NCBI GenBank assembly: GCA_963706575.1
Contig: CAVPNL010000005.1
Span: 32,001-96,000 of the forward strand
Reading direction: 5' to 3'
Length of the DNA: 64,000 nt
Origin: an uncultured delta proteobacterium
GTDB lineage: Bacteria > Desulfobacterota > Desulfobacteria > Desulfobacterales > JAHEIW01
Position numbers and translations under genes: made by a program. Below the pieces are notes generated by a model, which worked only from the letters and a program-made list of their open reading frames with translations, was not told where the DNA came from and did not search any database. Below, piece after piece: positions 369 to 58,215 of the stretch; positions within the stretch are counted from its first letter, which is position 1, and every line of letters begins with the position of its first letter.

Positions 369-537
369 TGAGTGCTGAGGACTGAGCAAAAAACTTTTCT
401 TCCAAGAGACCATTTCACATGACCTGTCGTTTTCCGCCATGAATCGTCCTCCTGGGACCATGAGTCGTCCCTTTGCGTCATGAGCTGGCATGGATTTTTA
501 TTTCTTTCAATTTCGATATACCTCAGTCCTCAGTCCT
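369..537. repeat. Inverted heptamer-repeat cassette (TGAGGAC)n/(GTCCTCA)n
   Basis: TGAGTGCTGAGGACTGAG (369-386) pairs with CTCAGTCCTCAGTCCT (522-537). The same unit recurs at 37861-37885. Confidence 0.7.
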
Positions 538-565
538 ATGTTTTGACACCTGAAACCCTTTTATC

Positions 566-2383
566 TTAAAGACCGCCAAATCCTTCATCTGGAATCTGAA
601 TGGCCGCTGCACATCCATCGGCGATGGCATTCATTTTTCCCATTGTTGCCGCTAGTTCGGTACGGATAAAAAATTCGGCGGTTTTGATCTGGCCCTCATA
701 GAATGCATTATCTTTTTTCTTGGTGCTGTTCGATAATTGGGTGGCTGCCGTCAAAGCCCGCCACAGAAGCATCCAGGCCATAATTGTGTCACCAATAACA
801 TACAAAAAAGGCAGGGAGTGGGCAAATGCCACCTTAAATTCAGCGGACATGGCCTTTTTACCCAGATGCAGGGCGACCTCACCGAGGCGGTTAGCAGCAG
901 CCTCGACCTTAATGGCCAGTTCTTGGGTTTGTTCAATCTGCTTTGCCTGCGCAACTGTTTTTTGAACTTCGCCGAGAAAATTCATGAATACCGCACCCTC
1001 TTTCATGCCAAGCTTTCGTCCGAGCATATCGAGGGCCTGAATGCCGCTGGTGCCTTCATAAATGGAAGTGATTTTGCAATCTCGAGCATATTGCTCAACC
1101 AGGTAATCTTTTGTATAGCCGGCACCGCCAAAGAGCTGAATGGACTGGATGCAGACTTCATGACCTTTAACAGCCATATAATCTTTTACCACCGGTGTGA
1201 GCATCGAAAAAAGGTCGCCATGACGCTCACGGTCTTCGGCTTTTTCACCAATCTTGCCTTTGGTTGCGAGCACCGTCATATAATAAAAAAAGCTGCGCAT
1301 CCCGTCCACATAGGATTTCATCCACAAAAGGTTGCGACGTACATCGGGGTGTTTAATAATTGTGACCGACGGCGCATTGTGATCGGCAAAATCCGCCAGA
1401 TCTCTTCCCTGGACGCGCTCACGGGCGTAATTGACCGACAGCATGTAAGCCGCTGAAGCATATGTCAATCCCTGAAGGCCGGTGCTCATGCGGGCACCGT
1501 TGATCATGTTGAACATGATTTTCATGCCTTCACGTTCCTGACCCAGCAAATAGCCGATGCATTTGCCCTTGCTGCCCAGCGTCATGGAGCAGGTGGCGCT
1601 GGCATGAATGCCGTGTTTTTCCTCGACCCCCGAGCAGGCAATGTCATTGCGATCGCCCAGGCTGCCGTCATCATTGACAAAAAATTTGGGAACCAGAAAC
1701 AAGGAGATACCCTTGGTCCCCGCAGGATCGCCTTCAATACGCGCCAGAACGGGGTGGATGATGTTTTCAGCCAAATCATGTTCACCGTTGGTAATAAAGA
1801 TCTTGTTGCCGTTCAACGAGTAGCTGTTGTCCGCGTTTTTAGTGGCAGTGGTGGTGAGAGCCCCGACATCAGAACCGGCTTCAGGCTCGGTGAGCAGCAT
1901 CGTACCGCCCCATTCCGCCGAAGTCAGCTTCTTGACGTATGTCTCTTTTTGTTCCGAGGTGCCGTATAATTGAATCATGTTGGCGGTGCCGTTTCCCATG
2001 GTGGCGTAACAAAATAGCGGCCAGTTCGCACTCAAAAAGTATTCAGCCGCCGCTGCACCTAAAAAGGCCGGAGCCCCCTGGCCGCCCATTTCCGCCGGCA
2101 CACTGAGGTTGTTCCATTCCCCTTCTTTTACCAGCTCAAACACCCGGTGAAAGCTCTGGGGCACCTTTACATTCCCGTTTTCATAGCGGACCCCTTCGGT
2201 GTCCCCTTCGGCCAGCAGTGGCAACAGCTCCTTTATGGCCAATGCCCGGGCTTCATTGATGATCAGGGTACAGGCTTTTTTGTTAAATTCCTTATAAGAT
2301 TCATGATTGAGAATATCCGCACAGTTTATTTGCTCCCAGATGACAAAATCCTGGTCACGTCTATCCACCAGCTGTTGTGCCAT
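566..2383 (-). CDS. Acyl-CoA dehydrogenase (long, ~600 aa type with C-terminal extension)
   Basis: Motifs LTEPEAGSDVG, GNKIFITNGE, FGGAGY, IYEGTSGIQALD. Confidence 0.95.
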   Translation of the reverse strand: MAQQLVDRRDQDFVIWEQINCADILNHESYKEFNKKACTLIINEARALAIKELLPLLAEGDTEGVRYENGNVKVPQSFHRVFELVKEGEWNNLSVPAEMGGQGAPAFLGAAAAEYFLSANWPLFCYATMGNGTANMIQLYGTSEQKETYVKKLTSAEWGGTMLLTEPEAGSDVGALTTTATKNADNSYSLNGNKIFITNGEHDLAENIIHPVLARIEGDPAGTKGISLFLVPKFFVNDDGSLGDRNDIACSGVEEKHGIHASATCSMTLGSKGKCIGYLLGQEREGMKIMFNMINGARMSTGLQGLTYASAAYMLSVNYARERVQGRDLADFADHNAPSVTIIKHPDVRRNLLWMKSYVDGMRSFFYYMTVLATKGKIGEKAEDRERHGDLFSMLTPVVKDYMAVKGHEVCIQSIQLFGGAGYTKDYLVEQYARDCKITSIYEGTSGIQALDMLGRKLGMKEGAVFMNFLGEVQKTVAQAKQIEQTQELAIKVEAAANRLGEVALHLGKKAMSAEFKVAFAHSLPFLYVIGDTIMAWMLLWRALTAATQLSNSTKKKDNAFYEGQIKTAEFFIRTELAATMGKMNAIADGCAAAIQIPDEGFGGL

Positions 2384-2468
2384 GATTTTAAAAACTCCTT
2401 TCTTTAGCTTATCCGCTTAGACTGCAGACTGACTTTAGCCCTATGGCGTATGGGTTAATGAGCGCATA

Positions 2469-2488
2469 ACGTGTAGTGCGCTACACGT
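2469..2488. promoter_or_regulatory. Candidate operator palindrome in the divergent promoter region
   Basis: ACGTGTAG-tgcg-CTACACGT has perfect 8-bp arms; back-to-back TTGACA boxes lie at 2517-2522 (-) and 2542-2547 (+). Confidence 0.45.
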
Positions 2489-2637
2489 GAATATACCTAA
2501 ATATATTGAAAAAAAATGTCAATAAATAATTTATTTTTTCCTTGACATTTTTTTGGGCCTTGGATTAATTGATGATCATACGGGCAACATCATTTGATAA
2601 TCTGGCGCCTACCCGCCATAATTGCTTTAGGGAAAAA

Positions 2638-3345
2638 ATGAAGATCAGCTCCGTGGTTAAACGTACTGGCGTACCCAAAGAAACCATTCATTTTTATATT
2701 CGCGAAGGGTTACTTCGCAAGCCCCGCAAATCCGGGGTTAATATCGCCGATTATACCGAAAATCACGTCAAACAAATTCGGTTTATCAAAGAACTGCGGG
2801 ATAATTTTTATTTTCCGATTCCTTTGATCAGGAAAATTGTCCGGAAAGTCAAAAAGCAACCCTCTTCTGATCGGGCTTTTTTTGAACTTCATGGCAAATA
2901 TTTTCGTCCGGCAGACCGGATGCTTAATGAAGAAATTGTCGGAAGGGACGAATTTCACCAAACCACCGGTCTGGGCCGCAAATGGATCCACAAGGCCGAA
3001 GAATGGGGACTCATCGAGCCGCAAGTGCAAGACGGACAACCCGTTTATTCACTGGATGACATCGCCATCGGTAAATTGATGGTTGATATGGACCGTATCG
3101 GTTTTGGCCCCAAAGATGGTCACGACCCCGAGGATCTGCGCTACATCGCCGATTTCGTTAAGGAGTTTGTAGTAAACAGTTTTAAAAAATATTACCGGAC
3201 GAATCTGGAAAAATTGTCTGCGACGGATTTTGACCAGAAACGGAACCAGTTTCATGAAGTCATCAGCCTTTTTTTCTATCATCTATATCGTAAATATGCG
3301 CGGCAGACCATCCACCACCTGCTTGAATCCGAAGACAATGATTAA
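2638..3345 (+). CDS. MerR-family transcriptional regulator
   Basis: MKISSVVKRTGVPKETIHFYIREGLL is a MerR HTH. ATG at 2638 is preferred over the TTG at 2569. Confidence 0.9.
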   Translation: MKISSVVKRTGVPKETIHFYIREGLLRKPRKSGVNIADYTENHVKQIRFIKELRDNFYFPIPLIRKIVRKVKKQPSSDRAFFELHGKYFRPADRMLNEEIVGRDEFHQTTGLGRKWIHKAEEWGLIEPQVQDGQPVYSLDDIAIGKLMVDMDRIGFGPKDGHDPEDLRYIADFVKEFVVNSFKKYYRTNLEKLSATDFDQKRNQFHEVISLFFYHLYRKYARQTIHHLLESEDND

Positions 3346-3598
3346 ATGCCATGATCGAACTTTTTCCCAATCTCATATTTCTAGCCTATCCCGATTTTCC
3401 GGATCTGATGCGTGGTTTGAGCTTGTTCTCATTGAAAAGCATCTTGAACGACTAAAAACCATGGGAAAAGTTAAACAAATAAACGATAGGTGGTTGGCAA
3501 CAGCGAGTTGATCTCTGAAAATACCGGCCGCATAACCGACGCGACCGTTTATGCAAGCAGCGATTCACCGGTCAATGGGGGATCGCAAGGAGGAATCA

Positions 3599-5245
3599 AT
3601 GGCGGAGAAGACTTACCAACCCGGAGAAAACTATAATTATCCCCTTATTATTAAAAAGCTGCTCAACACCCCGTTGATCTATTCGCCCGACCAGGAAATA
3701 GTATACGATGACAAGAATCGTTATACCTATCGAACTTTGAATGAACGCATCAACCGGCTGGCAAGTGGTCTAGAAAAATTCGGTGTAGCCAAGGGGGACG
3801 TTGTCGCCGTATTTGATTATGACAGTCATCGCTACCTGGAATGTTTTTTTGCGATTCCGATGATGGGAGCGGTGCTTCAGACGATAAACTGGCGGTTATC
3901 TGTCGATCAGATTTTATACACGCTCAACCATGCAGAGGCGAAAGTTATCATCATCCATGCTGAGTTTCTACCGATTCTGGAAAACATAAAAAACAAATTA
4001 GAAACCGTTAAGAAGTTTGTCGTAATTGACGAGGACGCCGATGTCAGCGGCTCACAATTAAGAGTTGATGCAGTGTACGAGCAATTACTGCAATCCGGAT
4101 CAACTGACTATGAATTTCCGGATCTGGACGAAAACACCAAAGCCACAACCTTTTACACCACCGGTACCACCGGCAATCCAAAAGGAGTATATTTTTCCCA
4201 CCGACAGTTGATGCTGCACACCCTTGGGGTGAGTATCGTTTCCGGCTGCTATCACACCCTCGGCCGTTTTCGATCCGATGATGTCTATATGCCGCTAACA
4301 CCCATGTTTCATGTCCATGCCTGGGGATTTCCCTATGTGGCCACCCTGCTGGGTGCCAAACAGGTTTATCCCGGCCGTTACGAGCCGGAGAGACTCCTGA
4401 AGTTAATCGAAAAGGAAGGGGTCACCTATTCACACTGCGTGCCCACCATTTTGCAGATGCTTTTAAGCTGCCCGACAATTAACCAGGTGGATCTGTCCAA
4501 TTGGAAGGTCACCATCGGCGGTGCCCGACTGCCGAGAGGCCAAGCCCGGGCCGCAAAAGACCTCGGTATCGAAATTCATGCCGGCTACGGCATGTCGGAG
4601 ACCTGCCCGGTCATCAGCACCGCAACCCCGATGGAGAACATGCTCGATTGGGAAGACGACGCCTTGCTGGACATCATCATCAAAACCGGACGGCCGCTGC
4701 CGCTGGTGGAATTTGAGGTTTTCGATGCAAACGAAAAAGCCCTGCCCCACGACGGGCAATCATCGGGCGAGGTGGTCATGCGAGCTCCCTGGCTGACCAA
4801 AAGCTATTTCAAGGAACCGGCTAAGACAAGGGAGCTGTGGCGCAGCGGCTGGCTGCACAGCGGCGACGTGGGATACATTGATGAAAATGGCTACCTGCAG
4901 ATTACCGACCGTATCAAAGATGTCATCAAAAGCGGCGGGGAGTGGATATCCTCTTTGGACCTGGAAAACCTGTTGAGCCAGCATGAAGCGGTGCTGGAAT
5001 CGGCCGCCATCGGCATTCCGGATGAAAAATGGGGAGAGCGGCCGCTAATGATTGTGACCTTAAAGCCGGAATATAAGGGCAAAGTCACGGGTGAGGAATT
5101 TAAACAATTTATGCAAAAATTTGCCGAAGATGGAAAATTGCCCAAATACGGCGTGCCGGAACTTTACGAATTCGTAGATGAGATTCCTAAAACCAGCGTG
5201 GGGAAATTGGATAAGAAGGAATTAAGAAGATTTTATGTTGAATAA
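3599..5245 (+). CDS. Fatty-acid--CoA ligase (AMP-binding, medium/long chain)
   Basis: Motifs [57 protein letters not shown] precedes ATG 3599. Confidence 0.95.
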
Positions 5246-5250
5246 TTTAG

Positions 5251-5466
5251 AAACCGCGGAATAAATCATCAGCGACTGCATCGTGCAAACTCATGCATAA
5301 GGGGCCGTAACGAAAGAACAGAAATTAAATATAAAATAATGGATAACTGTAAAAACAACATCATGTCCAAAAGCCGCATTGCGATTATTCGCTGTTCTTT
5401 CGCAACGTCCCCTAATGCATTCAAACAGTGCACGATTTCGCTGCTGATAATTCATTCCGCTTTTTG
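5251..5466. mobile_element. Long imperfect inverted-repeat element (MITE-like or structured RNA)
   Basis: Arms 5256-5321 and 5392-5460 are largely complementary; TTAG is directly repeated at 5247-5250 and 5467-5470. Confidence 0.6.
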
Positions 5467-5586
5467 TTAGGATTTGAATTAACGACTCGGCGACCTTTGA
5501 TGCAATTGACGGGTGGGTGAAATTTCTTAATTCTCAGCGTTCCATGATGCATTCAGATAATGATGGCAGGTTATAAGGAGGCGGTT

Positions 5587-6384
5587 ATGACCATAGATGG
5601 GCGGCTTAAGGACAAGGTGGCCATTATCACCGGGGCGGCCAGCGGCATCGGCAAAGCAACCGCAGTTTTATTCGCCAAAGCAGGTGCCCGGCTCGCACTG
5701 GCGGATATTGATGCAGCGGGGTTAAAAGCAGTTGCGAATCACATTGCCAGAGCCGGCGGAACCACAATCACAAAAAAGACAGACGTGTCTAATGAAAAAG
5801 AGGTTGAAGCGCTGGTCGCGCGTGCTTTAAAAACCTATTCAAAAGTCGACATTGTTTGTAACATTGCCGGTGTAGCCGGAGACCTGGCAGACCTCGACCA
5901 ACAGGATAAAAATGTTTGGAAGCAGGTCTATGATGTGAATGTCATGGGGGCGGTATGCACCACAAAATATGTTTGCCTGCATATGCAGCAGAGAAAGTCG
6001 GGATCCATTGTAAATGTTTCATCTGTAGCCGGTATTCGATCCGGAGCCGGCGGAAATGCTTACAGTGCCAGCAAGGCAGCACTCATTAATTTTACCCAGA
6101 CAGCCGCCTGTGATTTGGGCGGATACAATGTTCGAGTAAACGCCGTTTGCCCCGGTTTGATTGAAACCGGCATGACCCAATCGATTTTTGATTATGCCAG
6201 GAAAAGCGGCAAGGAGAATAAACTGGGTAGTCGATGTGAATTGAGGCGATACGGCAGGCCTGAAGAGGTGGCCCATGTCATTTTGTTTCTGGCCGGCGAC
6301 GAAGCCAGCTATGTGACCGGACAGGCGCTACCGGTCGATGGCGGTAATACGGCATCATTAAATTTACCCGGTATGAAAGTTTAG
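5587..6384 (+). CDS. Short-chain dehydrogenase/reductase (classical SDR)
   Basis: TGAASGIG, YSASK, VRVNAVCPG, TGQALPVDGG. AAGGAGG RBS precedes ATG 5587. Confidence 0.95.
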   Translation: MTIDGRLKDKVAIITGAASGIGKATAVLFAKAGARLALADIDAAGLKAVANHIARAGGTTITKKTDVSNEKEVEALVARALKTYSKVDIVCNIAGVAGDLADLDQQDKNVWKQVYDVNVMGAVCTTKYVCLHMQQRKSGSIVNVSSVAGIRSGAGGNAYSASKAALINFTQTAACDLGGYNVRVNAVCPGLIETGMTQSIFDYARKSGKENKLGSRCELRRYGRPEEVAHVILFLAGDEASYVTGQALPVDGGNTASLNLPGMKV

Positions 6385-6644
6385 AAGTGGTTTCAGAACC
6401 CCATCTCCCCGCTATATGAAGCGGGATTTCGCATCTAATTGAAAGATTATTAAAGGAGCTCAAAAGGCCCAATGGCTGCGTTGTAGACCTCCGATAAATG
6501 CTCACATACCCACATGTATGCTGAGAACAACGACTTTCTCGATCGGCCTGCGCCTTGATGCATACATTAATTTATTAAGATCAGATATGTAATCCCGCTT
6601 AGCGGGGCCCTTGAACCTGATCTGAGGCTCTGAAACCACTTCTA
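6382..6644. mobile_element. MITE-like element family A, long variant
   Basis: Perfect 16-bp TIRs TAGAAGTGGTTTCAGA/TCTGAAACCACTTCTA. Core is homologous to 26566-26712 and 27281-27427, with internal insertions. Confidence 0.85.
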
Positions 6645-6659
6645 ATCCCTGGAACGATT

Positions 6660-7550: not shown

Positions 7551-7582
7551 TACCAAAATAATTTTTTGATCGAGGAGGCCTT

Positions 7583-8248: not shown

Positions 8249-8281
8249 AAAGTTGAACTTAAAGCGGGGAGTAAAAATATT

Positions 8282-8727: not shown

Positions 8728-8756
8728 ATTCAACAATTCGCAGGATTGAACCTGAT

Positions 8757-9284: not shown

Positions 9285-9388
9285 ATTCACAGTCCTTTCT
9301 TCGCTTAGCTAGGTTATCGGAATAAGGTGCAAAATTATTTTAGATGGGTTGATGAACAATTGTCAATTCAAATTGATTTCGAGAATAT

Positions 9389-13500: not shown

Positions 13501-13502
13501 AT

Positions 13503-13806
13503 TAGAAGCTATCTCAAAATTAGCAGTTCATCTTTGAAGACAGAGAAAAAAAGTTCCAAAGGTGCTCTAAAATTAGAAATGCCTAAAATGACTAAAATGA
13601 GCTAAAGTGCCTAAAGTTATGGTTTCGCTGCGCTCCATCTTTTATTTAATATGATCGTTCGCCCCAGAGGCTCTCGAAGGTTAGAATTCCTCAATTTTAG
13701 GCATTTTAGATCATTTTTAATTTTAGCTCATTTGTTGTTGTAAGCACCTTTTATAGGTTTAAAACTTTACTATCGGGTGTTAAATGTATTTTTGAGATAG
13801 CTTCTA
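13503..13806. mobile_element. MITE-like element family B with nested repeats
   Basis: Perfect 17-bp TIRs TAGAAGCTATCTCAAAA/TTTTGAGATAGCTTCTA. Related single ends occur at 14921-14937 and 24152-24167. Confidence 0.8.
13567..13732. repeat. Inverted (CTAAARTGn)n/(CAYTTTAG)n repeat cassette
   Basis: GCCTAAAATGACTAAAATGAGCTAAAGTGCCTAAAGTT...AATTTTAGGCATTTTAGATCATTTTTAATTTTAGCTCATT. Same family at 31071-31203 and 51268-51307. Confidence 0.85.
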
Positions 13807-14691
13807 ACTTTTTTCTAAATTCTTAACTTTATTGCCGTCTTTGTCATACCGGTACCACCCCTTGCCGGTTTTGCGGCCCAGGTGACCGGCCTTAACCTTG
13901 CGCCTTAACAAAAGGGGCGGGTACCAGCGGGAGTCTCCAGTTTCCTTATACATGGCCATCAACGCACCATAGGTGACATCCAGCCCCACCATATCACCGG
14001 TCTCAAATATACCCATTTTTCTGCCGAGACCCAGCCTCAGGCCCTTGTCGACATCTTGAATGGAGACCACACCCTGTTCGACTAACTTCATGGCCTCGAT
14101 CGTGGAAGGAAAGTTGATTCGATTGATAGCAAATCCGGGTACATCCCGATTCACCATGATGGCTTCTTTGCCGATCTTTTTAACAAAGTCCCCCCCGGCT
14201 TTAGCGGTTTCATCTGTTGTCGAAATTCCTTTGATGACTTCCACCACCTGCATCATGGGGACCGGACTGAAAAAATGCAGTCCCAGAACCTTAGCGGCGC
14301 GATGGGTCACAGCAGCCAGGTCGCTGATGGGTATGGCCGAAGTGTTGCTGGCCAGCAGCGTATGCGGTGCGCACGATTGGTCAAGTTCCTCAAAGATTTG
14401 CTGTTTAAGTTCAAGTTGCTCGAACACCGCTTCGATTGCCAGGTCGATGTCTTTGGCTGAACCCAGATCTGTGATCGGGGTGATACGATCGATGATGGCT
14501 TCCTTTTTCTCAGCCAATTTGCCTTTTTCAATGAACTTGCCCACCGACCATTCGATGTTTTTGATGGCTTTATCGAGGGCCTCCCGGGAGACATCGTTCA
14601 AAAATACATGAATACCGGCCTGAGCGCACACCTGGGCAATACCGCTGCCCATCAATCCGGAACCAACGACAATCACTTTTTTTATTTCCAT
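13804..14691 (-). CDS. 3-hydroxyacyl-CoA (3-hydroxybutyryl-CoA) dehydrogenase
   Basis: VVGSGLMGSGIA, ASNTS, GLHFFSP, GFAINR, GHLGRKTGKGWY. GGAGG RBS before ATG 14691. Confidence 0.95.
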   Translation of the reverse strand: MEIKKVIVVGSGLMGSGIAQVCAQAGIHVFLNDVSREALDKAIKNIEWSVGKFIEKGKLAEKKEAIIDRITPITDLGSAKDIDLAIEAVFEQLELKQQIFEELDQSCAPHTLLASNTSAIPISDLAAVTHRAAKVLGLHFFSPVPMMQVVEVIKGISTTDETAKAGGDFVKKIGKEAIMVNRDVPGFAINRINFPSTIEAMKLVEQGVVSIQDVDKGLRLGLGRKMGIFETGDMVGLDVTYGALMAMYKETGDSRWYPPLLLRRKVKAGHLGRKTGKGWYRYDKDGNKVKNLEKS

Positions 14692-14934: not shown

Positions 14935-15100
14935 CTAGTATTGTGTCCTACAAATAAGTTAAAAAATGATTGTCACTCCCGCGCAGGCGGGAGTCCAGTT
15001 CAAAGACGCCTGGATTCCCGCCTGCGCGGGAATGACGGATGGATAGCACACCTCAGAACTTAATAATATTTTTGGCAATATTTCTAGGACACAACACTAG
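14935..15100. mobile_element. MITE-like element family C with a REP/dRS3-like dimer core
   Basis: TIRs CTAGTATTGTGTCCTACAAATA/TATTTCTAGGACACAACACTAG match at 20/22. Core palindromic dimer at 14972-15036. Confidence 0.85.
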
Positions 15101-15846: not shown

Positions 15847-15848
15847 GA

Positions 15849-24016: not shown

Positions 24017-24081
24017 GTCATTCCCGCGCAGGCGGGAATCCAGGCGTCTTTGAACTGGACTCCCGCCTGCGCGGGAGTGAC
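24017..24081. repeat. REP/dRS3-like palindromic dimer (core of family C)
   Basis: GTCATTCCCGCGCAGGCGGGAATCCAG...CTGGACTCCCGCCTGCGCGGGAGTGAC is identical to the reverse complement of 14972-15036. A family-C-like end CTAGTATTGTGT begins at 23938. Confidence 0.9.
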
Positions 24082-26565: not shown

Positions 26566-26712
26566 TAGAAGTGGTTTCAAAACCCCATCTAAGGCCCACG
26601 GCCTGCGTTGCAAGCCTCCGATAAATGCTCACATACACATGTATGCTGCGCTTTCTCGATCGGCTTGACGCCTTGTCCTTGAACCTGATCTGGAATTTTG
26701 AAACCACTTCTA
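26566..26712. mobile_element. MITE-like element family A, short 147-bp variant
   Basis: Perfect 17-bp TIRs TAGAAGTGGTTTCAAAA/TTTTGAAACCACTTCTA and an internal long hairpin. Confidence 0.9.
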
Positions 26713-27280: not shown

Positions 27281-27427
27281 TTGAAGCGGTTTCAAAATCC
27301 CATCTAAGGCCCAAGGGCTGCGTTGCAGGCCTCCGGTAAATGCTCACATACCCATGTATGCTGCGCTTTTCCGATCGGCCTGACGCCTTGCCCTTGAACC
27401 TGATCTGGAATTTTGAAACCACTTCTT
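27281..27427. mobile_element. MITE-like element family A, short variant
   Basis: Colinear, highly similar copy of 26566-26712 in the same orientation; termini slightly decayed. Confidence 0.9.
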
Positions 27428-27443
27428 ATAAAGGACTTTTCCG

Positions 27444-31070: not shown

Positions 31071-31203
31071 AAGTGAGCTAAAGTGCCTAAAGTGATCTAA
31101 AATGCCTAAAGTTAAGGTATTCTGTCATTTTTATAATAGATGATAGAGCGCAGCCATACCTTAACTTTAGGCACTTCCAACTTTAGTTCACTTTAGTCAC
31201 TTT
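31071..31203. repeat. Inverted (CTAAAGTG)n/(CACTTTAG)n repeat cassette
   Basis: Perfect 18-bp stem TGCCTAAAGTTAAGGTAT (31103-31120)/ATACCTTAACTTTAGGCA (31156-31173) plus flanking tandem units. Confidence 0.88.
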
Positions 31204-35488: not shown

Positions 35489-35654
35489 CAATTAGTTTCC
35501 ATCCGGAAATGGCCCTTTTTCGCTTTGTCTTGATGAGCTGCGTTCTCCGCGGGTTTTCCGCCGGCAACGTACTCGATGTACGCCTTGGCGGAAACCCTTG
35601 TGCGGCCTTGCTCATCGAAAAAACTGCTCATTTCCAAATTGAAAACCAATTAGT
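35489..35654. mobile_element. Hairpin element with a CTGCGTT...CGTAC-loop-GTACG...CCTTG core
   Basis: Long imperfect inverted repeat (GATGAGC/GCTCATC, GGGTTTTCCGCC/GGCGGAAACCC); CAATTAGT is directly repeated at both ends. Confidence 0.7.
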
Positions 35655-36805: not shown

Positions 36806-37066
36806 TTAACCACAGAGCACACAGAACTCACTGAGAAAATTAAAAGTTAAATTTATCCGCAGATTACGCAGATTTCCGCAGATTTGGAAAATTAATATTA
36901 AGAGAAATTCATTAAAATTATTACAGAGACAGAAATAATTGTTAATTATCTAAAATTTGTGGGCCCATTTTTTTATATTTTCTAATTTATAAATTAATCT
37001 GCGATAATCTGCGAAATCTGCGGATTATTAAATCACCTCTTTGGTCTCTGTGATCTCTGTGGTTAA
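36806..37066. repeat. Two nested inverted tandem-repeat cassettes: outer (CACAGAG), inner (CGCAGATT)
   Basis: TTAACCACAGAG (36806-36817)/CTCTGTGGTTAA (37055-37066) enclose CCGCAGATTACGCAGATTTCCGCAGATT (36857-36884)/AATCTGCGATAATCTGCGAAATCTGCGG (36996-37023). Confidence 0.9.
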
Positions 37067-37087: not shown

Positions 37088-37807
37088 TTGCAGAAAGATC
37101 ACCGCCCATATTTTTTAAAAAGAGCGCTATCGAAGTTTCAAAGATTTTATACCCGCCATTTTTTACGTCCCCATTTTACCGCCCTTGGCAATTCCCCTAC
37201 AATTGTTAAGCCCTGGTACGTGGAAGTATTCGGCTCCCCGGTTGATATCGGTGATTATGTTTCCATTATTGCCGCTCCGGACAACAGGGTGCGGTTGTCT
37301 GTTTGGGCAGACAAACAGGTCAGCGGACGAATTCGTATCGGAGATTATTGTCTGCTCGGTCCGGGAGTTAGAATCAGTTCGGCTTCACAAATCCGCATCG
37401 GTGATAACTGCATGATCGCCAGCGGTGCCTATCTAACCGATTCCGATTGGCATGATGTCTATAACCGTATTGCATTCGGGAAAACAGATCCGATTGATAT
37501 TGCGAATAACGTCTGGATCGGAGACAGCGCCATTGTCTGCAAAGGGGTTAGCATCGGTGAAAACAGTGTCGTTGGTGCCGGGGCGGTGGTGGCCAATTCT
37601 ATCCCCGCCAATTGCATTGCCGCCGGAAACCCTGCCCAGGTTGTCAAGCATCTTGACGCTGAAGAAGCATTTACGACCCGTAAGCAGTGGTTTTTAAAAG
37701 CTTCCAATTTGTATGCTGAAATTGATCAACTGGACAGAGAGTTGTTGGGCGACAATACCTTGCTGCACTGGTTGCGGTATGTGTTCTTTCCCTCTAAAGG
37801 AGATTGA
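37088..37807 (+). CDS. Hexapeptide-repeat acyltransferase
   Basis: IRIGDNC, DSDWH, NVWIG, IGENSVVGAGAVV, AAGNPA. TTG start. Confidence 0.9.
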   Translation: MQKDHRPYFLKRALSKFQRFYTRHFLRPHFTALGNSPTIVKPWYVEVFGSPVDIGDYVSIIAAPDNRVRLSVWADKQVSGRIRIGDYCLLGPGVRISSASQIRIGDNCMIASGAYLTDSDWHDVYNRIAFGKTDPIDIANNVWIGDSAIVCKGVSIGENSVVGAGAVVANSIPANCIAAGNPAQVVKHLDAEEAFTTRKQWFLKASNLYAEIDQLDRELLGDNTLLHWLRYVFFPSKGD

Positions 37808-37810: not shown

Positions 37811-37885
37811 GATTGCGGATTTTAGATTGCGGATTGCGGATTTTGAAAATCCGATATCTACTTAGTCCTCAGCCCTCAGTCCTCA
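37811..37885. repeat. Heptamer repeats (GATTGCG)n and (GTCCTCA)n between convergent genes
   Basis: GATTGCGGATTTTAGATTGCGGATTGCGGATT followed by CTTAGTCCTCAGCCCTCAGTCCTCA. Confidence 0.8.
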
Positions 37886-40196: not shown

Positions 40197-40282
40197 ACCA
40201 CAAAGACACAAAGACACAAAGCGCACAAAGAATAATACTTAAAAAGACTAAAGATACTTTGTGATCTTCGTGCCTTTGTGGT
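40197..40282. repeat. Inverted (CACAAAG)n/(CTTTGTG)n repeat cassette
   Basis: ACCACAAAGACACAAAGACACAAAGCGCACAAAG...CTTTGTGATCTTCGTGCCTTTGTGGT. Confidence 0.88.
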
Positions 40283-50657: not shown

Positions 50658-50718
50658 CTCGATTGCGGAATGCGGATTTCTGAATGAAGAAAGGTTACTT
50701 GTAAGTTACTTAGCTATT

Positions 50719-51198
50719 ATGTTGCCGAACGAACTAAAAGAATCACTGGAAGAGAAAATCGCGCATGCCGATCATCCGCGGGAGATGGTGGTTGACGTCA
50801 TGCTGGCGCTGCAGGAGCACTACGGTTTCTTAAGCGATGATGCCGTGGAAGCGGTTGCGGCGTTATTGGGGATGTCGCCTCTGGAAGTGGAGGAGCTCGC
50901 CACCTTCTATACCTTTATTTACCGTGAGCCGGTCGGAAAATATGTGATTCATGTCTGTGACAGTGTGATTTGCTGGATGGACGGGGTTGGATCCATATCC
51001 ATACAGGATTATCTTTGCCGAAAACTGGATATCGCTGTGGGCGCCACCTCGGCGGATGGACTATTTACGCTTTTGCCGGTCTGCTGTATCGGATATTGTG
51101 ATTTGTCGCCGGCCATGCTGATCAACCGCAAGGTTTACGGGCATCTGACACCGCAGAAGATCGATGAAATATTAGAAAAATTGAAATCAGAAGCATGA
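50719..51198 (+). CDS. nuoE: NADH-quinone oxidoreductase subunit E
   Basis: ATFY, CDSVIC, CIGYC. ATG 50719 chosen as the start. Confidence 0.94.
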   Translation: MLPNELKESLEEKIAHADHPREMVVDVMLALQEHYGFLSDDAVEAVAALLGMSPLEVEELATFYTFIYREPVGKYVIHVCDSVICWMDGVGSISIQDYLCRKLDIAVGATSADGLFTLLPVCCIGYCDLSPAMLINRKVYGHLTPQKIDEILEKLKSEA

Positions 51199-51201
51199 GA
51201 A

Positions 51202-51307
51202 GATTTCGGAATGCGGAATGCGGATTTCGGATTAACGCATTCACCATTTAACTCATTATGCTTCCTTTAACTTTAGGCATTTTAGGCACTTTTAATTTTA
51301 GGCATTT
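51202..51307. repeat. Half-cassettes of the (GATTKCG/GAATGCG)n and (TTTAGGCA)n families
   Basis: GATTTCGGAATGCGGAATGCGGATTTCGGATT and CTTTAGGCATTTTAGGCACTTTTAATTTTAGGCATTT. Confidence 0.8.
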
Positions 51308-51310
51308 ACG

Positions 51311-52579: not shown

Positions 52580-52610
52580 CTGGCAGTCAATACAAATTTA
52601 TGATTTGTTT

Positions 52611-52635
52611 CGGTCGGCGCGGAGGCCGACCCTAC
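52611..52635 (-). repeat. GTAG-type REP-like palindrome
   Basis: Minus strand reads GTAG-GGTCGGC-ctccgc-GCCGACC. Confidence 0.65.
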
Positions 52636-52664
52636 TTGTGAATTAAAGATCTTGGAATGTTGGA

Positions 52665-55163
52665 ATGCCTAAACTCGTTATCGATGATCGTGAAATCGAA
52701 GTTGCGCCGGGAACCAAGGTGATCGAAGCTGCGCAAAAGCTGGGCATCATGATCCCGCGGTTATGTTACCATCCGGCTCTGGGTTCGGTGGGCGCCTGCC
52801 GGGTGTGTGCCGTTAAATTTTTACAGGGCCCGTTTAAAGGGGTGCAGATGAGCTGCATGGTGGCCGCCCAGGACGACATGGTGGTGTCCACCACCGACAA
52901 AGAAGCGGTCGCTTTCCGCAAATATGTGATTGAATGGCTGATGCTCAATCATCCCCACGATTGTCCGGTGTGCGATGAGGGCGGACATTGCCTGCTGCAG
53001 GATATGACGGTTTCCGGCGGCCACGGAATCCGAAGATACCTGGGGAAGAAGCGCACCTACGCCGACCAGTATCTGGGTCCCTTGCTCCAGCACGAAATGA
53101 ATCGCTGTATTCATTGTTACCGCTGTGCCAGATTTTATCAGGAATTCAGCGGTTATCGGGATCTGGGAGTCATGCAATCCGCCAATCAAACCTATTTTGG
53201 ACGTTTTGAAGACGGTGTCCTGGAAAGCCCCTTTTCAGGCAACCTGAGCGATATCTGTCCGACCGGCGTTTACACCGATAAGCCCGCCCGTTTTTTTGGC
53301 CGACGCTGGGATTTCGAGCGCAGTCCTTCATTATGTATTAGTTGCTCTTTAGGCTGCCATACGGTCGTAAGCTGCCGGTATCGTAAAGTCGTCAGGCAAG
53401 AAGCCCGGTTCAGTAATTCGGTAAACGGTTACTTCATTTGCGACCGGGGCCGCTATGGATTTTTCTATGCCGATCTGGAGCAGCGACCCCGCAGAGCCAT
53501 GATTGATGGTGAAGCGGTGGCTGTCGATCAGGCGGTTAATGTTCTGAAACAAAGGCTGGAGACCATCATGAACAAGGCCGGTAAGGCAGCGGTTGCCTGT
53601 GCGGGATCTACCCGCAGCAGTCTTGAAACGCTGGCCATGTTGAAACGGGCATCTCAGGTCAACGGATGGTCAGCGCCGGCTTATTTTGTGGATACGGCCA
53701 GTGCTCGTAGGGTGAAATCCGCTGTTGCCAGACTAGAACCCGATCTGATGGTCTCGCTGCGTGAAATTGAGTCAGCCGATTTTGTTTTAATGGTCGGCGC
53801 CGATGCGGTTAATGAAGCGCCGATGCTGGCTCCGGCCATGCGCCAGGCCCGGCGAAATAGTGCAACGATTGCCGTCATTGATCCCCGCCCGGTTTTTCTG
53901 CCTTTCGCATTTGAGCATTTGCCCGCAAAACTGGAAGAGCTCGATGGTTACCTCGCAGCGGTGATAAAAGCAGCGATCGATCCAGCTGCCCTTGAAGAAC
54001 AGGAAGAAACCACCCGTAAATTCTTTGCGGCTCTTCCGGAAATAGAGCCGGTGACGCGATTACAGCCAGAAAAAATATCTGCTCTGGCCGAAAAACTGAG
54101 AACCAGTCAGCGCCCGGTCATCGTTTGTGGCACGGATGCCGTGCGTCGACAGACACCCGCCCTGGCAGCCGATGTTACCCTGTTGTTGCAGGCCGCCGGC
54201 AAACAGGCGGGCTTGTTTTATTTAGTGCCCGGAGCCAATGCATTTGCGGCTGGGTTGCTTTCGGATAATACAGATTCATTTGAAACCCTTGTCGAAGATA
54301 TTGAAAAGGATTCAATTAAAGGGCTTATTCTGGTGGAAAGTAATCCGCTCTGGAAGTTTCCGGACCGGCAAAGGCTTGAAAAAGCACTGGCGCGTCTGGA
54401 GTTGATGGTTGTAATGGACTATCTGAATTCTGAAACCGCCCAGAAAGCCCATATATTCCTGCCCACGACAACGCTGTATGAATCGGGGGGTATTTATCTG
54501 AATCAGGAGGCCAGGGTCCAGATGGCGCAACCCGCTTACCGGGGCGGTGCCTCCATCGGTCTTACCGGCGGCGGGGACCATCCACCCCGGGTCTATGGCA
54601 CGGGAATCCCCGGCAATGAGCCTGCGGCAGCCTGGCAGCTACTGGATTATTTGATAGATGATGGAAAGCAGCCGACGGCGAAAGATCTGCGAGCCGGCAT
54701 ATGGAATTGGCTGGCAGAGACCGAATCCGGATTTAAAGAGCTGGGGACCATTGAGGAAATTCCCGATGACGGTGTGCGGTTTTATCGGCCGCCGGATTTA
54801 TCAGGGCGCTTTTCAAGCGAATTCCCCGGCGGCAGTTCCGTTAGTGATGGGCATTTGGAACTGATTGCCGTTGAGCGGACATTCGGCACCGAGGCGCTTG
54901 CGGCCCTGTCGGATTGTCTGGCGGAGCTTGCGGGGACGCCTGCTGTTTTGATGGGTTCAGACGATGCGGCAGAATTGAGCCTGACTGATGGGGATGTGGT
55001 GTCCATCGAACTCGATCGGGGAACCATCGAAGTCAAATTGCAGGTGGCCGATCTTATGGCCGCCGGCACGCTGATCATCCCCCGGCGCAAAGACCTGGAC
55101 TGGCAAAAATTGGGAACCGGTCAGACGCTGGTTCCAAAAGACCGGATACGGAAGATAAGATAA
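52665..55163 (+). CDS. nuoG: NADH-quinone oxidoreductase subunit G
   Basis: CYH...CRVC, HPHDCPVCD, CIHCYRC, CISCSLGC...CDRGR (N7-type cluster motif). Confidence 0.96.
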   Translation: MPKLVIDDREIEVAPGTKVIEAAQKLGIMIPRLCYHPALGSVGACRVCAVKFLQGPFKGVQMSCMVAAQDDMVVSTTDKEAVAFRKYVIEWLMLNHPHDCPVCDEGGHCLLQDMTVSGGHGIRRYLGKKRTYADQYLGPLLQHEMNRCIHCYRCARFYQEFSGYRDLGVMQSANQTYFGRFEDGVLESPFSGNLSDICPTGVYTDKPARFFGRRWDFERSPSLCISCSLGCHTVVSCRYRKVVRQEARFSNSVNGYFICDRGRYGFFYADLEQRPRRAMIDGEAVAVDQAVNVLKQRLETIMNKAGKAAVACAGSTRSSLETLAMLKRASQVNGWSAPAYFVDTASARRVKSAVARLEPDLMVSLREIESADFVLMVGADAVNEAPMLAPAMRQARRNSATIAVIDPRPVFLPFAFEHLPAKLEELDGYLAAVIKAAIDPAALEEQEETTRKFFAALPEIEPVTRLQPEKISALAEKLRTSQRPVIVCGTDAVRRQTPALAADVTLLLQAAGKQAGLFYLVPGANAFAAGLLSDNTDSFETLVEDIEKDSIKGLILVESNPLWKFPDRQRLEKALARLELMVVMDYLNSETAQKAHIFLPTTTLYESGGIYLNQEARVQMAQPAYRGGASIGLTGGGDHPPRVYGTGIPGNEPAAAWQLLDYLIDDGKQPTAKDLRAGIWNWLAETESGFKELGTIEEIPDDGVRFYRPPDLSGRFSSEFPGGSSVSDGHLELIAVERTFGTEALAALSDCLAELAGTPAVLMGSDDAAELSLTDGDVVSIELDRGTIEVKLQVADLMAAGTLIIPRRKDLDWQKLGTGQTLVPKDRIRKIR

Positions 55164-55180
55164 ACGAATAATTTATTCCA

Positions 55181-56185
55181 ATGGCGAACGGAACGATTAT
55201 GGTAACCTGGATTGCTGGATTCATCATACTGATTGTAAAATTGGGTGTTGTGCTTCTGGTTTTGCTGCTACTGGCTGCATACCTCGTGTGGCTGGAACGC
55301 AAATTTCTGGCAAGACTGCAGATTCGCTACGGCCCGAACCGGGCCGGAAAGTTCGGGCTGCTTCAGCCGATTGCGGATAGCATCAAGATGCTCACCAAGG
55401 AAGATATCGTTCCGGCGGCAGCGGATCGTTTTATTTTTCTGCTGGCACCTGCGGTGGTCGCCACGACGGCCCTGATGATGTTTGCCGTCGTTCCGTTTGG
55501 AAGCAGCCTAACGCTTTTTGGGAAAAAGGTGCCGCTCGTAATAACGGATCTGAACGTGGGGCTGCTCTTTGTCTTTGCGCTTTCTTCTTTAGGGGTCTAT
55601 GGTGTTGCAATGGGCGGCTGGGCCTCCAATTCGAAATACAGCCTCCTGGGCGGTATCCGCGGGGCGGCGCAGATGATCAGCTATGAGTTGGCCCTGGGGC
55701 TTTCCCTGGTTCCGATTGTCATGCTGGCGGACTCCTTCAGCATTGTGGAAATAGTTAAGGCTCAGGAGAGGTACCCGTTTATTTTGGTCCAGCCCTTTGC
55801 GTTTGTCATCTTCATGATTAGCGCCATGGCTGAAAGCAAACGGATTCCCTTTGATCTGCCCGAGGCTGAAAACGAGCTGGGGGCCGGCTACCACACCGAG
55901 TACAGTGGAATTCGCTTCGGGCTTTTTTTTCTGGGAGAATATGTCCATCTGCAGGTGCTGGGTGCGCTGGTGGCGGTCCTTTTTTTGGGCGGCTGGCGGG
56001 GCCCCATCCTGCCGCCGCCGGTATGGCTTTTTATTAAAATCATTTTTGTGGCGTTGATAATGATCTGGGTGCGGGGGACCCTGCCGCGACTGCGTTATGA
56101 TCAACTCATGGCGCTGGGGTGGAAAGTATTAATTCCAGCGGCTTTGATAAACATAATGGTAACCGGTGCAGTGCTGCTGATGTAA
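55181..56185 (+). CDS. nuoH: NADH-quinone oxidoreductase subunit H
   Basis: GPNRAG, QPIADSIK, PFDLPEAE, PRLRYDQ. Confidence 0.96.
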   Translation: MANGTIMVTWIAGFIILIVKLGVVLLVLLLLAAYLVWLERKFLARLQIRYGPNRAGKFGLLQPIADSIKMLTKEDIVPAAADRFIFLLAPAVVATTALMMFAVVPFGSSLTLFGKKVPLVITDLNVGLLFVFALSSLGVYGVAMGGWASNSKYSLLGGIRGAAQMISYELALGLSLVPIVMLADSFSIVEIVKAQERYPFILVQPFAFVIFMISAMAESKRIPFDLPEAENELGAGYHTEYSGIRFGLFFLGEYVHLQVLGALVAVLFLGGWRGPILPPPVWLFIKIIFVALIMIWVRGTLPRLRYDQLMALGWKVLIPAALINIMVTGAVLLM

Positions 56186-56203
56186 GATTCGAAATAGCAA
56201 TAA

Positions 56204-56300
56204 GAATTCAGGGATTAAGAATTTAGGAATTGAGGAATTCAAATCGAGAAGAATCCTCATTGCCAATTCCTAAATTCCAGAATACCTAAACACCTAAATT
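56204..56300. repeat. Inverted octamer-repeat cassette (GGAATTTA)n/(TAAATTCC)n
   Basis: GAATTCAGGGATTAAGAATTTAGGAATTGAGGAATT...CAATTCCTAAATTCCAGAATACCTAAACACCTAAATT. Confidence 0.8.
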
Positions 56301-56318
56301 TGAAAGTTTATAGAAATT

Positions 56319-56855
56319 ATGTCATCTGCCTTAGAAGCAGCAAAAGCCCTTGCAGTTGGCTTTGCAACAACATTCAAGCATCTCTTTCGAAAGCCCATAA
56401 CGGAAGAATACCCGGAATATAAACGCCCGTTGCCGGCGCGCAGCCGGGCCCGCATCATTCTGACCCGGGATCCCGACGGCGCTGAACGCTGCGTGGCCTG
56501 TTATCTGTGTTCGGCGGTTTGCCCGGTCAGCTGCATCTCCATGCAATCGGCCGAAGGAGAAGGCGGGCGGCGATATGCTCAATGGTTTCGAATTAACTTT
56601 GGCCGCTGTATCTATTGCGGTCTGTGCGAAGAAGCCTGCCCGACTTCCGCCATTCAGCTCACACCGGATTTTGAGAACTGTCAAAGAGATATCCTGACGC
56701 TGGTTTTCGAGAAAAAAGATCTGCTTGTCGATCACCAGGGTAAAGATAAAGAATATAATTTCTACAAATATGCCGGCGTGGTCACCGGGGTGGGGGAAAA
56801 AGGTGAGCATGTCAAGGAGGATAAGCCGGTCAATATAAAATCTAATCTCCCTTGA
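56319..56855 (+). CDS. nuoI: NADH-quinone oxidoreductase subunit I
   Basis: CVACYLCSAVCP and CIYCGLCEEACP. Confidence 0.96.
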   Translation: MSSALEAAKALAVGFATTFKHLFRKPITEEYPEYKRPLPARSRARIILTRDPDGAERCVACYLCSAVCPVSCISMQSAEGEGGRRYAQWFRINFGRCIYCGLCEEACPTSAIQLTPDFENCQRDILTLVFEKKDLLVDHQGKDKEYNFYKYAGVVTGVGEKGEHVKEDKPVNIKSNLP

Positions 56856-56861
56856 TATCAA

Positions 56862-57000
56862 TGGAGTATTGGAGCGATGGAGTAAAATCAATTGCGGATT
56901 TTAGATTGCGGATTGCGGATTGAAATACCTGATGTGCCGAATATTTAAAATCCGAAATCTGCAATCCGCATTCCGAAATCTTATTCACTCCAGTACTCCA
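56862..57000. repeat. Nested inverted cassettes: outer (TGGAGTAT)n, inner (GATTGCG)n
   Basis: TGGAGTATTGGAGCGATGGAGTA...CACTCCAGTACTCCA encloses ATTGCGGATTTTAGATTGCGGATTGCGGATT...AATCCGAAATCTGCAATCCGCATTCCGAAAT. Confidence 0.88.
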
Positions 57001-57053
57001 GATAAAAGCGGAGTTGTTAAATATCTTCACATCAAAAACTGACTTAAAATTTT

Positions 57054-57560
57054 ATGACACTGTACGCTCTCATATTCTACATCTTAGCCGCCATTATTCT
57101 GATCACCACCGGTTTGGCCATCACGCGGCGCAACCTGGTGCATGCCGTGGTGTATCTGGTTTTTTCTTTTTTCGGCAGCGCCATGATCTTTTATCTTTTC
57201 GGGGCGCCGCTTCTGGCGGTACTGGAAGTGATTATTTATGCCGGTGCCATTATGATTCTTTTTCTATTTATCATCATGATGGTCAAAGCGGAGACTTCAG
57301 AAAAGCGGTTGTTTGCGATTCAACAATGGCTGCCGATTGTCCTGATCGCGGTCGTCTATCTTGTTATCGGTGCCGTAATTGTTTCTTCTGCCCCCGGCAG
57401 CCAGGTTACGCTGGAAATCGCACTCGCCAAACCAAAAGCATTCGGCGAATATTTGTTTCAAAGACACTGGCTGGTCATCGAAATCGTCTCGTTGCTGCTG
57501 CTGATTGCACTCGTCGGTGCACTTTATCTGGGGCGCAAGAAGCCCGGGGAAAATATTTGA
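57054..57560 (+). CDS. nuoJ: NADH-quinone oxidoreductase subunit J
   Basis: IYAGAIMILFLF; position in the operon. Confidence 0.94.
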   Translation: MTLYALIFYILAAIILITTGLAITRRNLVHAVVYLVFSFFGSAMIFYLFGAPLLAVLEVIIYAGAIMILFLFIIMMVKAETSEKRLFAIQQWLPIVLIAVVYLVIGAVIVSSAPGSQVTLEIALAKPKAFGEYLFQRHWLVIEIVSLLLLIALVGALYLGRKKPGENI

Positions 57561-57603
57561 AAAGTTACAAAGTTCTTACAAGATGAAACCAAATTAGCGT
57601 TTA

Positions 57604-57679
57604 ACCACGAAGATCACGAAGAGCCCGAAGAATGACTTTTTTTTAAAAAAAACTTCGTGAACTTCGTGTCCTTCGTGGT
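57604..57679. repeat. Inverted nonamer-repeat cassette (CACGAAG)n/(CTTCGTG)n
   Basis: ACCACGAAGATCACGAAGAGCCCGAAG...CTTCGTGAACTTCGTGTCCTTCGTGGT. Confidence 0.88.
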
Positions 57680-57744
57680 GATAAAAATTCTGGTAGGAAA
57701 AGCTAAATCTTAATTTTAAGAAACCCACAAATTAAAGATAAATT

Positions 57745-58047
57745 ATGATCGTTCCATTTGGCCATGTTCTGATATTATGCGGGCTTCTTTTCCTGATGGG
57801 GGTATTTTGTGCGGTTGTGCGTCGTAACCTGATCATGATTGTGCTGGGCGTGGAAATTATGTTAAACGCCGCCTCCATTGCTTTTGTGGGCGCCGCATTG
57901 CGATGGCAACAGCTGGAAGGCCAGGTGTTCGCCCTTTTTATCTTAGCAGTGGCAGCCGCAGAGGTATCCGTTGGGCTGGCTTTGATTGTTTATGTTTACA
58001 GAAGGACCGGGTCATTTGATCCGGAAGCGTATAACCTTTTGAAATGA
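57745..58047 (+). CDS. nuoK: NADH-quinone oxidoreductase subunit K
   Basis: VEIMLNA, AAAEVSVGLA. Confidence 0.95.
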   Translation: MIVPFGHVLILCGLLFLMGVFCAVVRRNLIMIVLGVEIMLNAASIAFVGAALRWQQLEGQVFALFILAVAAAEVSVGLALIVYVYRRTGSFDPEAYNLLK

Positions 58048-58056
58048 AGAATAACA

Positions 58057-58215
58057 TGGAGTTATGAAGTGGTGGGGTAAAATTAATTGCGGATTTTAGA
58101 TTGCGGATTGAAATATCAGACATGTCGGCATTAAAAATCCGAAATCTGCAACCCCGAAATTTTAATCGTTTGAATTTTCCGGTAGCGTATTGCTCCATTG
58201 CCAACAAATTACTCT
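58057..58215. repeat. Degenerate paralogue of the 56862-57000 nested cassette
   Basis: GTAAAATTAATTGCGGATTTTAGATTGCGGATTGAAATA...AAAATCCGAAATCTGCAA is shared with 56882-56963. Confidence 0.82.

Follow-up and report, generated by a model that had tools for sequence, protein, structure and literature searches.

Paired repeat arrays in the window

The window analysed here comprises 64,000 nt of contig C5 (positions 32,001 to 96,000) in the 5.67-Mb assembly of an uncultured delta proteobacterium (GCA_963706575.1, hereafter genome G000), which is 92% complete and 6% contaminated. The closest named homologues are from Desulfobacterales, in keeping with that order. In its intergenic regions, near acyl-CoA dehydrogenase genes, between hsp20 and lon and in the nuo operon, lie cassettes of one design, in which a short unit repeated in tandem (the left arm) is followed by a spacer and by the reverse complement of the unit, again in tandem (the right arm). 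We examine these paired inverted arrays together with two types of small genes, the four-helix-bundle (FHB) genes (PF05635; TIGR02436) and the GxxExxY genes (PF13366). Each arm listed in an earlier, sequence-only reading of the window was found at its position or off by a few bases. The loci are listed below, with a strand for single arms only; gene positions derive from a simple gene caller written for this analysis, and start codons are approximate (UTR, untranslated region; MITE, miniature inverted-repeat transposable element; MFS, major facilitator superfamily).

330..558: compound gene-less cassette with TGAGGAC arms (369-387 and 521-537), at a junction of minus-strand genes
13502..13807: TA-ended MITE-like element of a separate family, surrounding the 13567 cassette
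13567..13733: CTAAAGTG cassette; the two halves of its spacer correspond to the 5' and 3' UTRs of an FHB gene cassette
31071..31203: CTAAAGTG cassette at a convergent gene junction
36806..37066: nested 9-mer pair of the GxxExxY type, with CACAGAG outer and CGCAGATT inner arms (36855-36884 and 36996-37025)
37811..37842, plus strand: single GATTGCG left arm, starting 3 nt past the stop codon at 37807
37861..37885, minus strand: single TGAGGAC left arm, abutting the stop of a minus-strand MFS gene (37886)
40197..40282: CACAAAG/CACGAAG cassette at the hsp20-lon junction
50661..50680, plus strand: single GATTGCG left arm past the nuoBCD stop
51202..51233, plus strand: single left arm of the GATTGCG type at the 3' end of nuoE
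51268..51307, minus strand: single CTAAAGTG right arm, ending 3 nt ahead of the nuoF ATG
56204..56300: GGAATTTA/GGGATTGA 8-mer cassette at nuoH-nuoI; FHB locus L060 has a matching unit
56862..57000: compound cassette at nuoI-nuoJ, with TGGAGT outer and GATTGCG inner arms
57604..57679: CACGAAG cassette at the nuoJ-nuoK junction
58057..58215: TGGAGT/GATTGCG compound at nuoK-nuoL, a degenerate copy (fold z -2.4)

The sequence-only reading had proposed about a dozen loci of one paired design, in at least seven unrelated families, with AT-rich spacers of about 25-200 nt. The shared design is evident, but the loci at 37811, 37861, 50661, 51202 and 51268 are single arms. Nor are all the families unrelated: CACAGAG, CACAAAG and CACGAAG are one-letter variants of a single 9-mer. 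The spacers measure 19-133 nt and are AT-rich in six of the nine paired loci (GC content 0.11-0.34), whereas the remaining three have a GC content of 0.42-0.45, compared with 0.50 for the window. Folding of the nine gives z scores of -2.0 to -11.1 relative to dinucleotide shuffles (-9.2 for the nested pair at 36806-37066). An Rfam search of the window returned no match, and the arrays are, as had been stated, not CRISPR arrays, since direct repeats of 24-48 nt with unique spacers are lacking.

The cassette at 330-558 has eroded outer arms of the GTTCA/GTGTCAG type, a TGAGGAC unit that matches FHB genes L044 and L048, and a CATGA-periodic module inside the TGAGGAC arms. The module (406-500) consists of four CATGA-anchored units with a period of about 21 nt, each resembling a purine-rich stretch followed by ATG when viewed on the minus strand, and has about 12 genome matches, mainly within TGAGGAC arms. 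The right arm of the 31071-31203 cassette overlaps the 3' end of a minus-strand gene at 31193. The inner left arm at 36855-36884 is letter-identical to the reverse-complemented right arm of the GxxExxY locus L098.

Genome-wide occurrence and placement

When the eight units of the sequence-only reading are searched for as arms within 300 nt of each other, G000 yields 163 pairs in left-then-right order ('+-'), one in the opposite order ('-+') and none as '++' or '--'; the same search of the block-shuffled genome yields no pairs. A unit-blind search finds 398 loci in G000 compared with 2 in shuffled DNA, and 22 hand-written unit patterns, which can overlap, give 426 pairs of one polarity and 4 of the opposite. 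Of the short loci found de novo, 319 of 334 are intergenic. Paired inverted arrays are thus real and genome-wide, with hundreds in G000, and the observation made in the window is confirmed.

Such a cassette is present in about a tenth of the gaps of 80-600 nt between genes (286 of 2822): 212 of 2001 between tandem genes, 50 of 362 between convergent genes and 24 of 459 between divergent genes. Most junctions of the complex I (nuo) operon in G000 are occupied. At tandem junctions one third of the loci start no more than 15 nt past the stop codon, and the median distance from a gene-less cassette to the next start is 67 nt. Single arms are also found between genes (198 cases), 149 of them oriented as in a whole cassette and 49 in the opposite sense.

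Gene-bearing cassettes and their units

The G000 genome encodes eight TIGR02436 FHB genes (two of them near-identical) and four GxxExxY genes, and inverted arrays occur on both sides of 9 of these 12, in keeping with a link to both gene types that the sequence-only reading had suggested. In a control, TIGR02436 was also found in Bacteroides thetaiotaomicron. A wider set of 228 FHB and GxxExxY genes was gathered from G000, 40 relatives and a homologue search (80 loci, part of the matches retrieved). In this set every window unit has a gene-bearing form, which bears out the suggestion that the window loci are empty cassettes. The 7-8-mers bracket FHB genes, five different clades of which carry CTAAAGTG, GATTGCG, TGAGGAC, GGGATT 8-mer and TGGAGT units, respectively; the 9-mers (CACAGAG, CACGAAG, CACAAAG and CGCAGATT) bracket genes of the GxxExxY putative nuclease. 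In 70% of 114 gene-bearing loci the first unit lies within 15 nt past the upstream stop, and the cargo genes are mainly on the operon strand (that of 74 of 82 upstream and 69 of 80 downstream neighbours).

The coupling of unit to clade is clearest for CTAAAGTG. Its clade, whose members are 64-97% identical to the G000 gene, has the unit on both sides in 72 of 85 genes with full flanks; outside the clade it is absent from all 84 of the other FHB genes and accompanies a single GxxExxY gene of 47. The clade occupies 57 different junctions among 74 scored, and its record titles include Desulfobacterota, Planctomycetota, Bacteroidota, Calditrichota and others. The unit is likewise kept within clade in 28 of 30 genes for TGGAGT and 6 of 8 for CGCAGAT. 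On trees restricted to armed genes, the unit changes 13 times among 53 FHB genes (oversampled clade thinned; minimum 13, shuffled 34.4) and 10 times among 30 GxxExxY genes (minimum 8, shuffled 20.2). Because congeners share junctions, we read these trees as showing clustering of units and not co-evolution. The same layout appears in four named plasmid records, namely two Nostoc plasmid FHB genes with inverted heptamer-type arms, and GxxExxY genes of Bacteroides finegoldii and Bernardetia plasmids with CACAGAG arms.

Some loci depart from the simple layout. In L008, L047, L078 and L087 the arms extend into the cargo reading frame and encode low-complexity protein ends (an acidic tail in L008). 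At G000:C9:235765-238018, CGCAGATT arms and long inverted flanks, 2.2 kb apart, surround an Lrp-type regulator and an aminotransferase gene, representing either host-gene capture or two half cassettes. Other cargo was sought between arms in G000 and rejected, as the long pairs hold ordinary host genes, mainly between two separate cassettes. An armless FHB clade, comprising L005 (G000:C4:622300) and 17 relatives mainly downstream of the same gene, shows a GC hairpin that is conserved on the 5' side of the gene. Several members also have, on the 3' side, a pair of small genes that is toxin-antitoxin-like in look.

Descent and dispersal of gene-less copies

The spacers of the cassettes at 13567 and 31071 consist of the 5' UTR of gene cassette L128 fused to its 3' UTR, a match that covers the gene cassettes L128/L126. 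At the nuoH-nuoI junction of the relative G022, an internally deleted FHB gene (TIGR02436, E 1.7e-8) is still present between arms. The gene-less copies are also numerous. Counting genome matches that cover at least 70% of a window cassette, six of the window cassettes have 67 (31071-31203), 42 (13567), 23 (56862-57000), 10, 9 (330-558, matched as 366-540) and 8 matches, and the other three have 2, 1 and 1; these counts are possibly inflated slightly by near-identical contig stretches in G000. Such stretches were noted in the contig pairs C20/C6, C16/C17, C15/C23 and C21/C16, and fit either the 6% contamination or duplication of strains. Nested compounds have been dispersed as single units, their copies being 70-87% alike with outer arms trimmed to differing lengths, as in the variably trimmed matches of the 56862-57000 compound.

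Cassette ends are ragged and fall within the repeat arrays. No target duplication above the cross-pair background was detected in seven families, nor any at polymorphic junctions; old copies could have had a short duplication that has since been lost. One read-derived contig lacks the cassette at nuoJ-nuoK and has different sequence in between. Among otherwise similar CTAAAGTG spacers, small GC-rich hairpin modules (e.g., window 13643-13683) are present or absent. The paired arrays are likely to be gene-less derivatives of repeat-armed gene cassettes, and for their descent and dispersal as such these sequence comparisons make a very strong case.

Turnover of cassettes among relatives

Relatives carry empty, filled, replaced and gene-bearing alleles of the same junctions, as the sequence-only reading had anticipated. 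At 13 relative loci, the nuo junctions hold different unit families in different genomes: nuoH-nuoI carries other families, in one case with the deleted FHB gene; at nuoJ-nuoK the stop and start codons overlap in 6 of 11 relative loci; and nuoM-nuoN is empty in all six genomes scored. At one junction of an efflux operon, G000 has an empty cassette, five relatives have an FHB clade with its arms, and two have another clade with other arms. Similarly, of 310 orthologous junctions compared with G002/G005, 27 have an array in G000 only and 28 in the relative only, 13 have a different family, 11 the same and 231 none. Co-occupation of a junction by different families exceeds expectation (odds ratio 4.0, p 8e-4). 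Gaps that contain two complete families show nesting in nine of nine cases (six representing one compound), never a side-by-side or interleaved arrangement. One junction (G000:C8:10738-11457, compared with L048) has a TGAGGAC-armed FHB gene in G007 and a different FHB clade with other arms in G000, where a leftover TGAGGAC arm lies upstream of the gene.

Probable fold-back of the arms

Linkers were compared in 49 distinct cassettes of the 9-mer type. Those 2-nt linkers that would face each other upon pairing of the arms are complementary in 17 and 14 of 98 cases, compared with 31.5 and 27.7 expected from permuted arms (14 of 76 compared with 25.0 in G000 cassettes alone). Off-register linkers are not depleted (35 and 35, compared with 30.5 and 28.8). 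This specificity to register argues for a physical fold-back, which is likely for the 9-mer arms, their pairing in vivo being suggested by the register-specific mismatches. The periodic internal loops of the sequence-only reading find support in the 9-mers only. The mismatch may serve recognition, or it may just reflect the deletion of perfect stems.

On the transcribed strand of tandem junctions, G-U exceeds A-C no more than by chance (157 and 153). The values are 38 and 33, and 44 and 36, at FHB loci; at GxxExxY loci they are 5 and 15 (p 0.04, one among several tests and on related loci). Lacking a G-U bias, the arms do not single out RNA as the folded molecule.

The cargo proteins

The FHB cargo belongs to PF05635 and is close to the solved pentamer 2RLD (E 1e-20, five chains). 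The accessible part of one source (PMC10053308) describes PF05635 as homologous to Avd, the accessory protein of diversity-generating retroelements (DGRs), and a bAvd profile gives a weak match (E 1e-4) for one of five FHB proteins.

The GxxExxY cargo belongs to PF13366, listed as a family of unknown function with multiple transfers. Residues E30, D70, E80 and K82 are invariant in 37 aligned proteins (degenerate ones omitted), and the structural model (predicted local distance difference test score 95.9) has a restriction-endonuclease-like fold. The E, D and ExK residues thus occupy such a fold as in the PD-(D/E)XK nucleases, and nuclease activity is predicted from the model. A fold search produced ties with many nuclease folds (best Z 8.3), pointing to no specific substrate. 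In an armless clade of five GxxExxY proteins the motif E is lost and the D is changed to N in three, so that the clade is possibly a domesticated, inactive copy. It comprises L012 (G000:C9:54351), L093, L249, L252 and L256, and the degenerate motif is kept at one locus. PADLOC gave no match for four proteins.

Other repeats in the window

TA-ended MITE-like elements lie at 6381-6645, 13502-13807, 26566-26712 and 27283-27430. Genome-wide they form two families with a modal length of 146-147 bp and about 232 and 196 ends; a search between ends paired within 3.5 kb gave no transposase. Doublets of GTCA(T/C)TCCCGCGCAGGCGGGA, similar to repetitive extragenic palindromic (REP) sequences, occur at 14972-15036, 24017-24081 and 63148-63235; they may resemble the known GTCATTCCCG repeats. 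Further long imperfect intergenic inverted repeats, without tandem units, lie at 5293-5420 and 35490-35640.

Explanations of the cassettes

We consider it somewhat probable that the paired arrays derive, as non-autonomous forms, from selfish gene cassettes with repeat arms. In this view copying follows once the arms have folded back and a protein of the cassette type has recognised them, with host recombination completing insertion. Each protein clade would read its own unit. The GxxExxY protein would cut the folded arms, whereas the FHB ring would bind them and work with a host or GxxExxY nuclease; that the cargo protein recognises the arms, and by what chemistry, is inferred. The trans-acting recombinase or nuclease of the sequence-only reading is likewise a candidate mover only. 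Insertion would occur past stop codons or inside older cassettes, in bursts of copying while the matching gene is in the cell, and the empty copies would outlast the gene.

A number of observations weigh against this explanation. Coupling of unit to clade would also result if the two were simply inherited together, and orthologues in congeners make up many of the genes that share a unit; TGAGGAC relatives (57-64% identity) keep the unit in only two of six cases, and one FHB clade of 18 genes has no repeat arms. The FHB family has no known catalytic activity. The linker mismatch is absent from seven families other than the 9-mers, in which the register is ambiguous, and adjacent linkers within one 9-mer arm differ as well (23 compared with 39.8 expected), which fits deletion of perfect stems; loss of perfect repeats could thus underlie the linker signal. 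No excised or joined form was present in contigs assembled from four runs of mixed organisms. Some CTAAAGTG cassettes could have been moved by TA-ended MITEs; as only 21 of 96 adjoin such an element and nine are enclosed, this was set aside as a minor route.

The distribution of cognate genes counts against the explanation as well. G000 has cognate genes for two of the eight window units only, and abundant families such as CACRRAG (52 pairs), ATTGGTT (45) and GTTCA (41) have none. Among 150 genomes of the phylum, 11 have at least three CTAAAGTG double units; the cognate clade (at least 60% protein identity) was found in two of these and in none of the other 139, and it was not found in three genomes with 29-45 matches and 95-100% completeness. 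Any relative (E <= 1e-15) occurs in 8 of the 11 and in 14 of the 139. It follows that empty copies outlast the gene, or that non-cognate or host proteins move them; absence of repeat-flanked genes from assemblies may be part of the cause. Viral sequences provided no cargo: among viral contigs, 40 loci with a CTAAAGTG triple had no pair (strict pattern) and no cargo gene, 122 loci with TAACTGA or GGGAATC triples had no cargo gene, and 50,697 phage records gave no GxxExxY match.

The depletion at divergent promoters and the prevalence of cargo on the operon strand would also be expected if the arms acted in RNA only, forming a stem in the mRNA by which the cargo gene is looped out and the operon spared. 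The cargo protein would bind such a stem, or RNase III would cut it as it does an intervening sequence (IVS) of rRNA. Spread would then need no more than gene transfer of the ordinary kind and recombination by the host, between arms or between flanking genes. Some arms indeed span from the stop codon to 0-6 nt before the next ATG, and a PF05635 gene is known within an RNase III-cut stem-loop, the Coxiella 23S IVS (PMC4990558, accessible part). We nevertheless judge this account unlikely: the transcribed strand has no G-U bias, gene-less cassettes typically end well short of the next start, and the account contains no copying step, which the dozens of complete empty cassettes at unrelated sites require. 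Retro-mobility would supply such a step, if an Avd-like FHB ring passed the hairpin RNA to a host reverse transcriptase and the cDNA were inserted near transcript 3' regions with a GxxExxY nick. The Avd homology, ragged ends without target duplication and placement past stop codons are consistent with this, and G000 has a single reverse transcriptase; but no arms lie within 900 nt of it, the cassettes hold one gene only and no RNA-strand asymmetry is seen, which makes this course improbable.

Finally, the arrays could be tandem repeats born by slippage and kept as nucleoid-protein sites, G-quadruplexes or translation signals, in which small genes have landed. Arrays without a cognate gene are in line with this, as are the published readings for Geobacter, Xanthomonas and Beggiatoaceae (PMC2700814, PMC4692102 and PMC4679880, in their accessible parts). 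Still, a host regulator would not tolerate the different unit families that congeners hold at the same junction. Moreover, the unit tracks the cargo protein across phyla, most G000 units lack G-tracts and spacers descend from gene-cassette UTRs, and we regard this origin as very improbable.

Copying of folded cassettes, the explanation we favour, would extend beyond this genome. As a tentative and rather doubtful generalisation, the cassettes may form a class of transposase-free minimal mobile elements, in which two unrelated proteins of 120-130 residues read a clade-specific 7-9-nt code on folded, mismatched arms and copy the intervening DNA past stop codons; their non-autonomous offspring would include the orphan heptamer and octamer arrays known from cyanobacteria, Xanthomonas, Geobacter and Beggiatoaceae. 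Dozens of natural protein-unit pairs would then provide an orthogonal recognition toolkit. Arrays of this design are known from several phyla, with three differing guesses at function and their source unknown, and the gene-less cassette reading, if true, would explain these long-reported arrays. PF05635 and PF13366 are large families of unknown function, so far without a substrate, and the tie of clade to unit and the origin of empty copies from deleted gene cassettes make both directly testable. The cassettes also reshape operon junctions, including most of those in the complex I operon.

Comparison with known systems

The cassettes share several features with REPINs, the doublets of REP sequences that are associated with RAYT genes (PMC3116915, accessible part). 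Both are extragenic, inverted and foldable, and gene-less copies spread as units. One genome holds several sequence groups, and each group has its partner gene, which the group's own repeat flanks. Unlike REPINs, whose arms are palindromic REPs of 20-40 bp, the cassettes have arms composed of tandem 6-10-nt units, and their partners are PF05635 and PF13366 proteins, not HUH tyrosine transposases, with genes at many junctions across phyla. Six matches to the Y1 transposase (PF01797) are found in the 92% complete G000, none of them bracketed by these arms.

Like the gene-bearing IVS of 23S rRNA (S23p, Coxiella; PMC4990558), which in the accessible text is patchy in occurrence and horizontally spread, the FHB-type parents have a PF05635 reading frame in the loop of a terminal stem, and the window copies lack it. 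In contrast to the IVS, the cassettes occur at protein-gene junctions (of 286 gene-bearing loci, none matches the rRNA locus of G000), their stems are tandem arrays with mismatched linkers, and there is a second, unrelated cargo family. As in the MITEs of insertion sequences, many copies arise by internal deletion of a gene-bearing parent, seen here in the CTAAAGTG family and in the deleted gene of G022. However, the cassettes have neither fixed ends nor target duplication, their parents encode PF05635 or PF13366 only and no transposase, and their 70-87% similarity differs from the uniform 146-bp TA-ended MITEs of G000. The relation to DGRs is one of fold family, through Avd and the solved PF05635 pentamers 2RLD and 2GSC; the cassettes carry a single gene, without reverse transcriptase, template repeat or variable repeat, and the lone G000 reverse transcriptase is unlinked. 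The gene-plus-arms element thus falls outside the definitions of REPIN, IVS, MITE, CRISPR and DGR, and works partly like the first three.

Short-repeat arrays of cyanobacteria (short tandemly repeated repetitive sequences) are further unexplained arrays of this kind. Published examples include paired octamer and heptamer tandem arrays of Geobacter, read as IHF/HU sites (PMC2700814), 70 inverted GGGAATC pairs of Xanthomonas campestris pv. campestris, read as G-quadruplexes, and heptamer arrays of Nostoc (both PMC4692102), and TAACTGA arrays of Beggiatoaceae (PMC4679880). According to the accessible parts of these papers, such arrays resemble ours in having 7-8-nt units in 2-6 copies and opposite-strand pairs, near stop codons on the sense strand and rarely between divergent genes; they are read as protein sites or G-quadruplexes, and those parts name no cargo gene. 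A literature search, in which subscription journals were thinly covered, found no paper tying such arrays to PF05635 or PF13366 genes. The bare repeats are already in print piecemeal, and what is new is best read as the class of gene-plus-arms cassettes.

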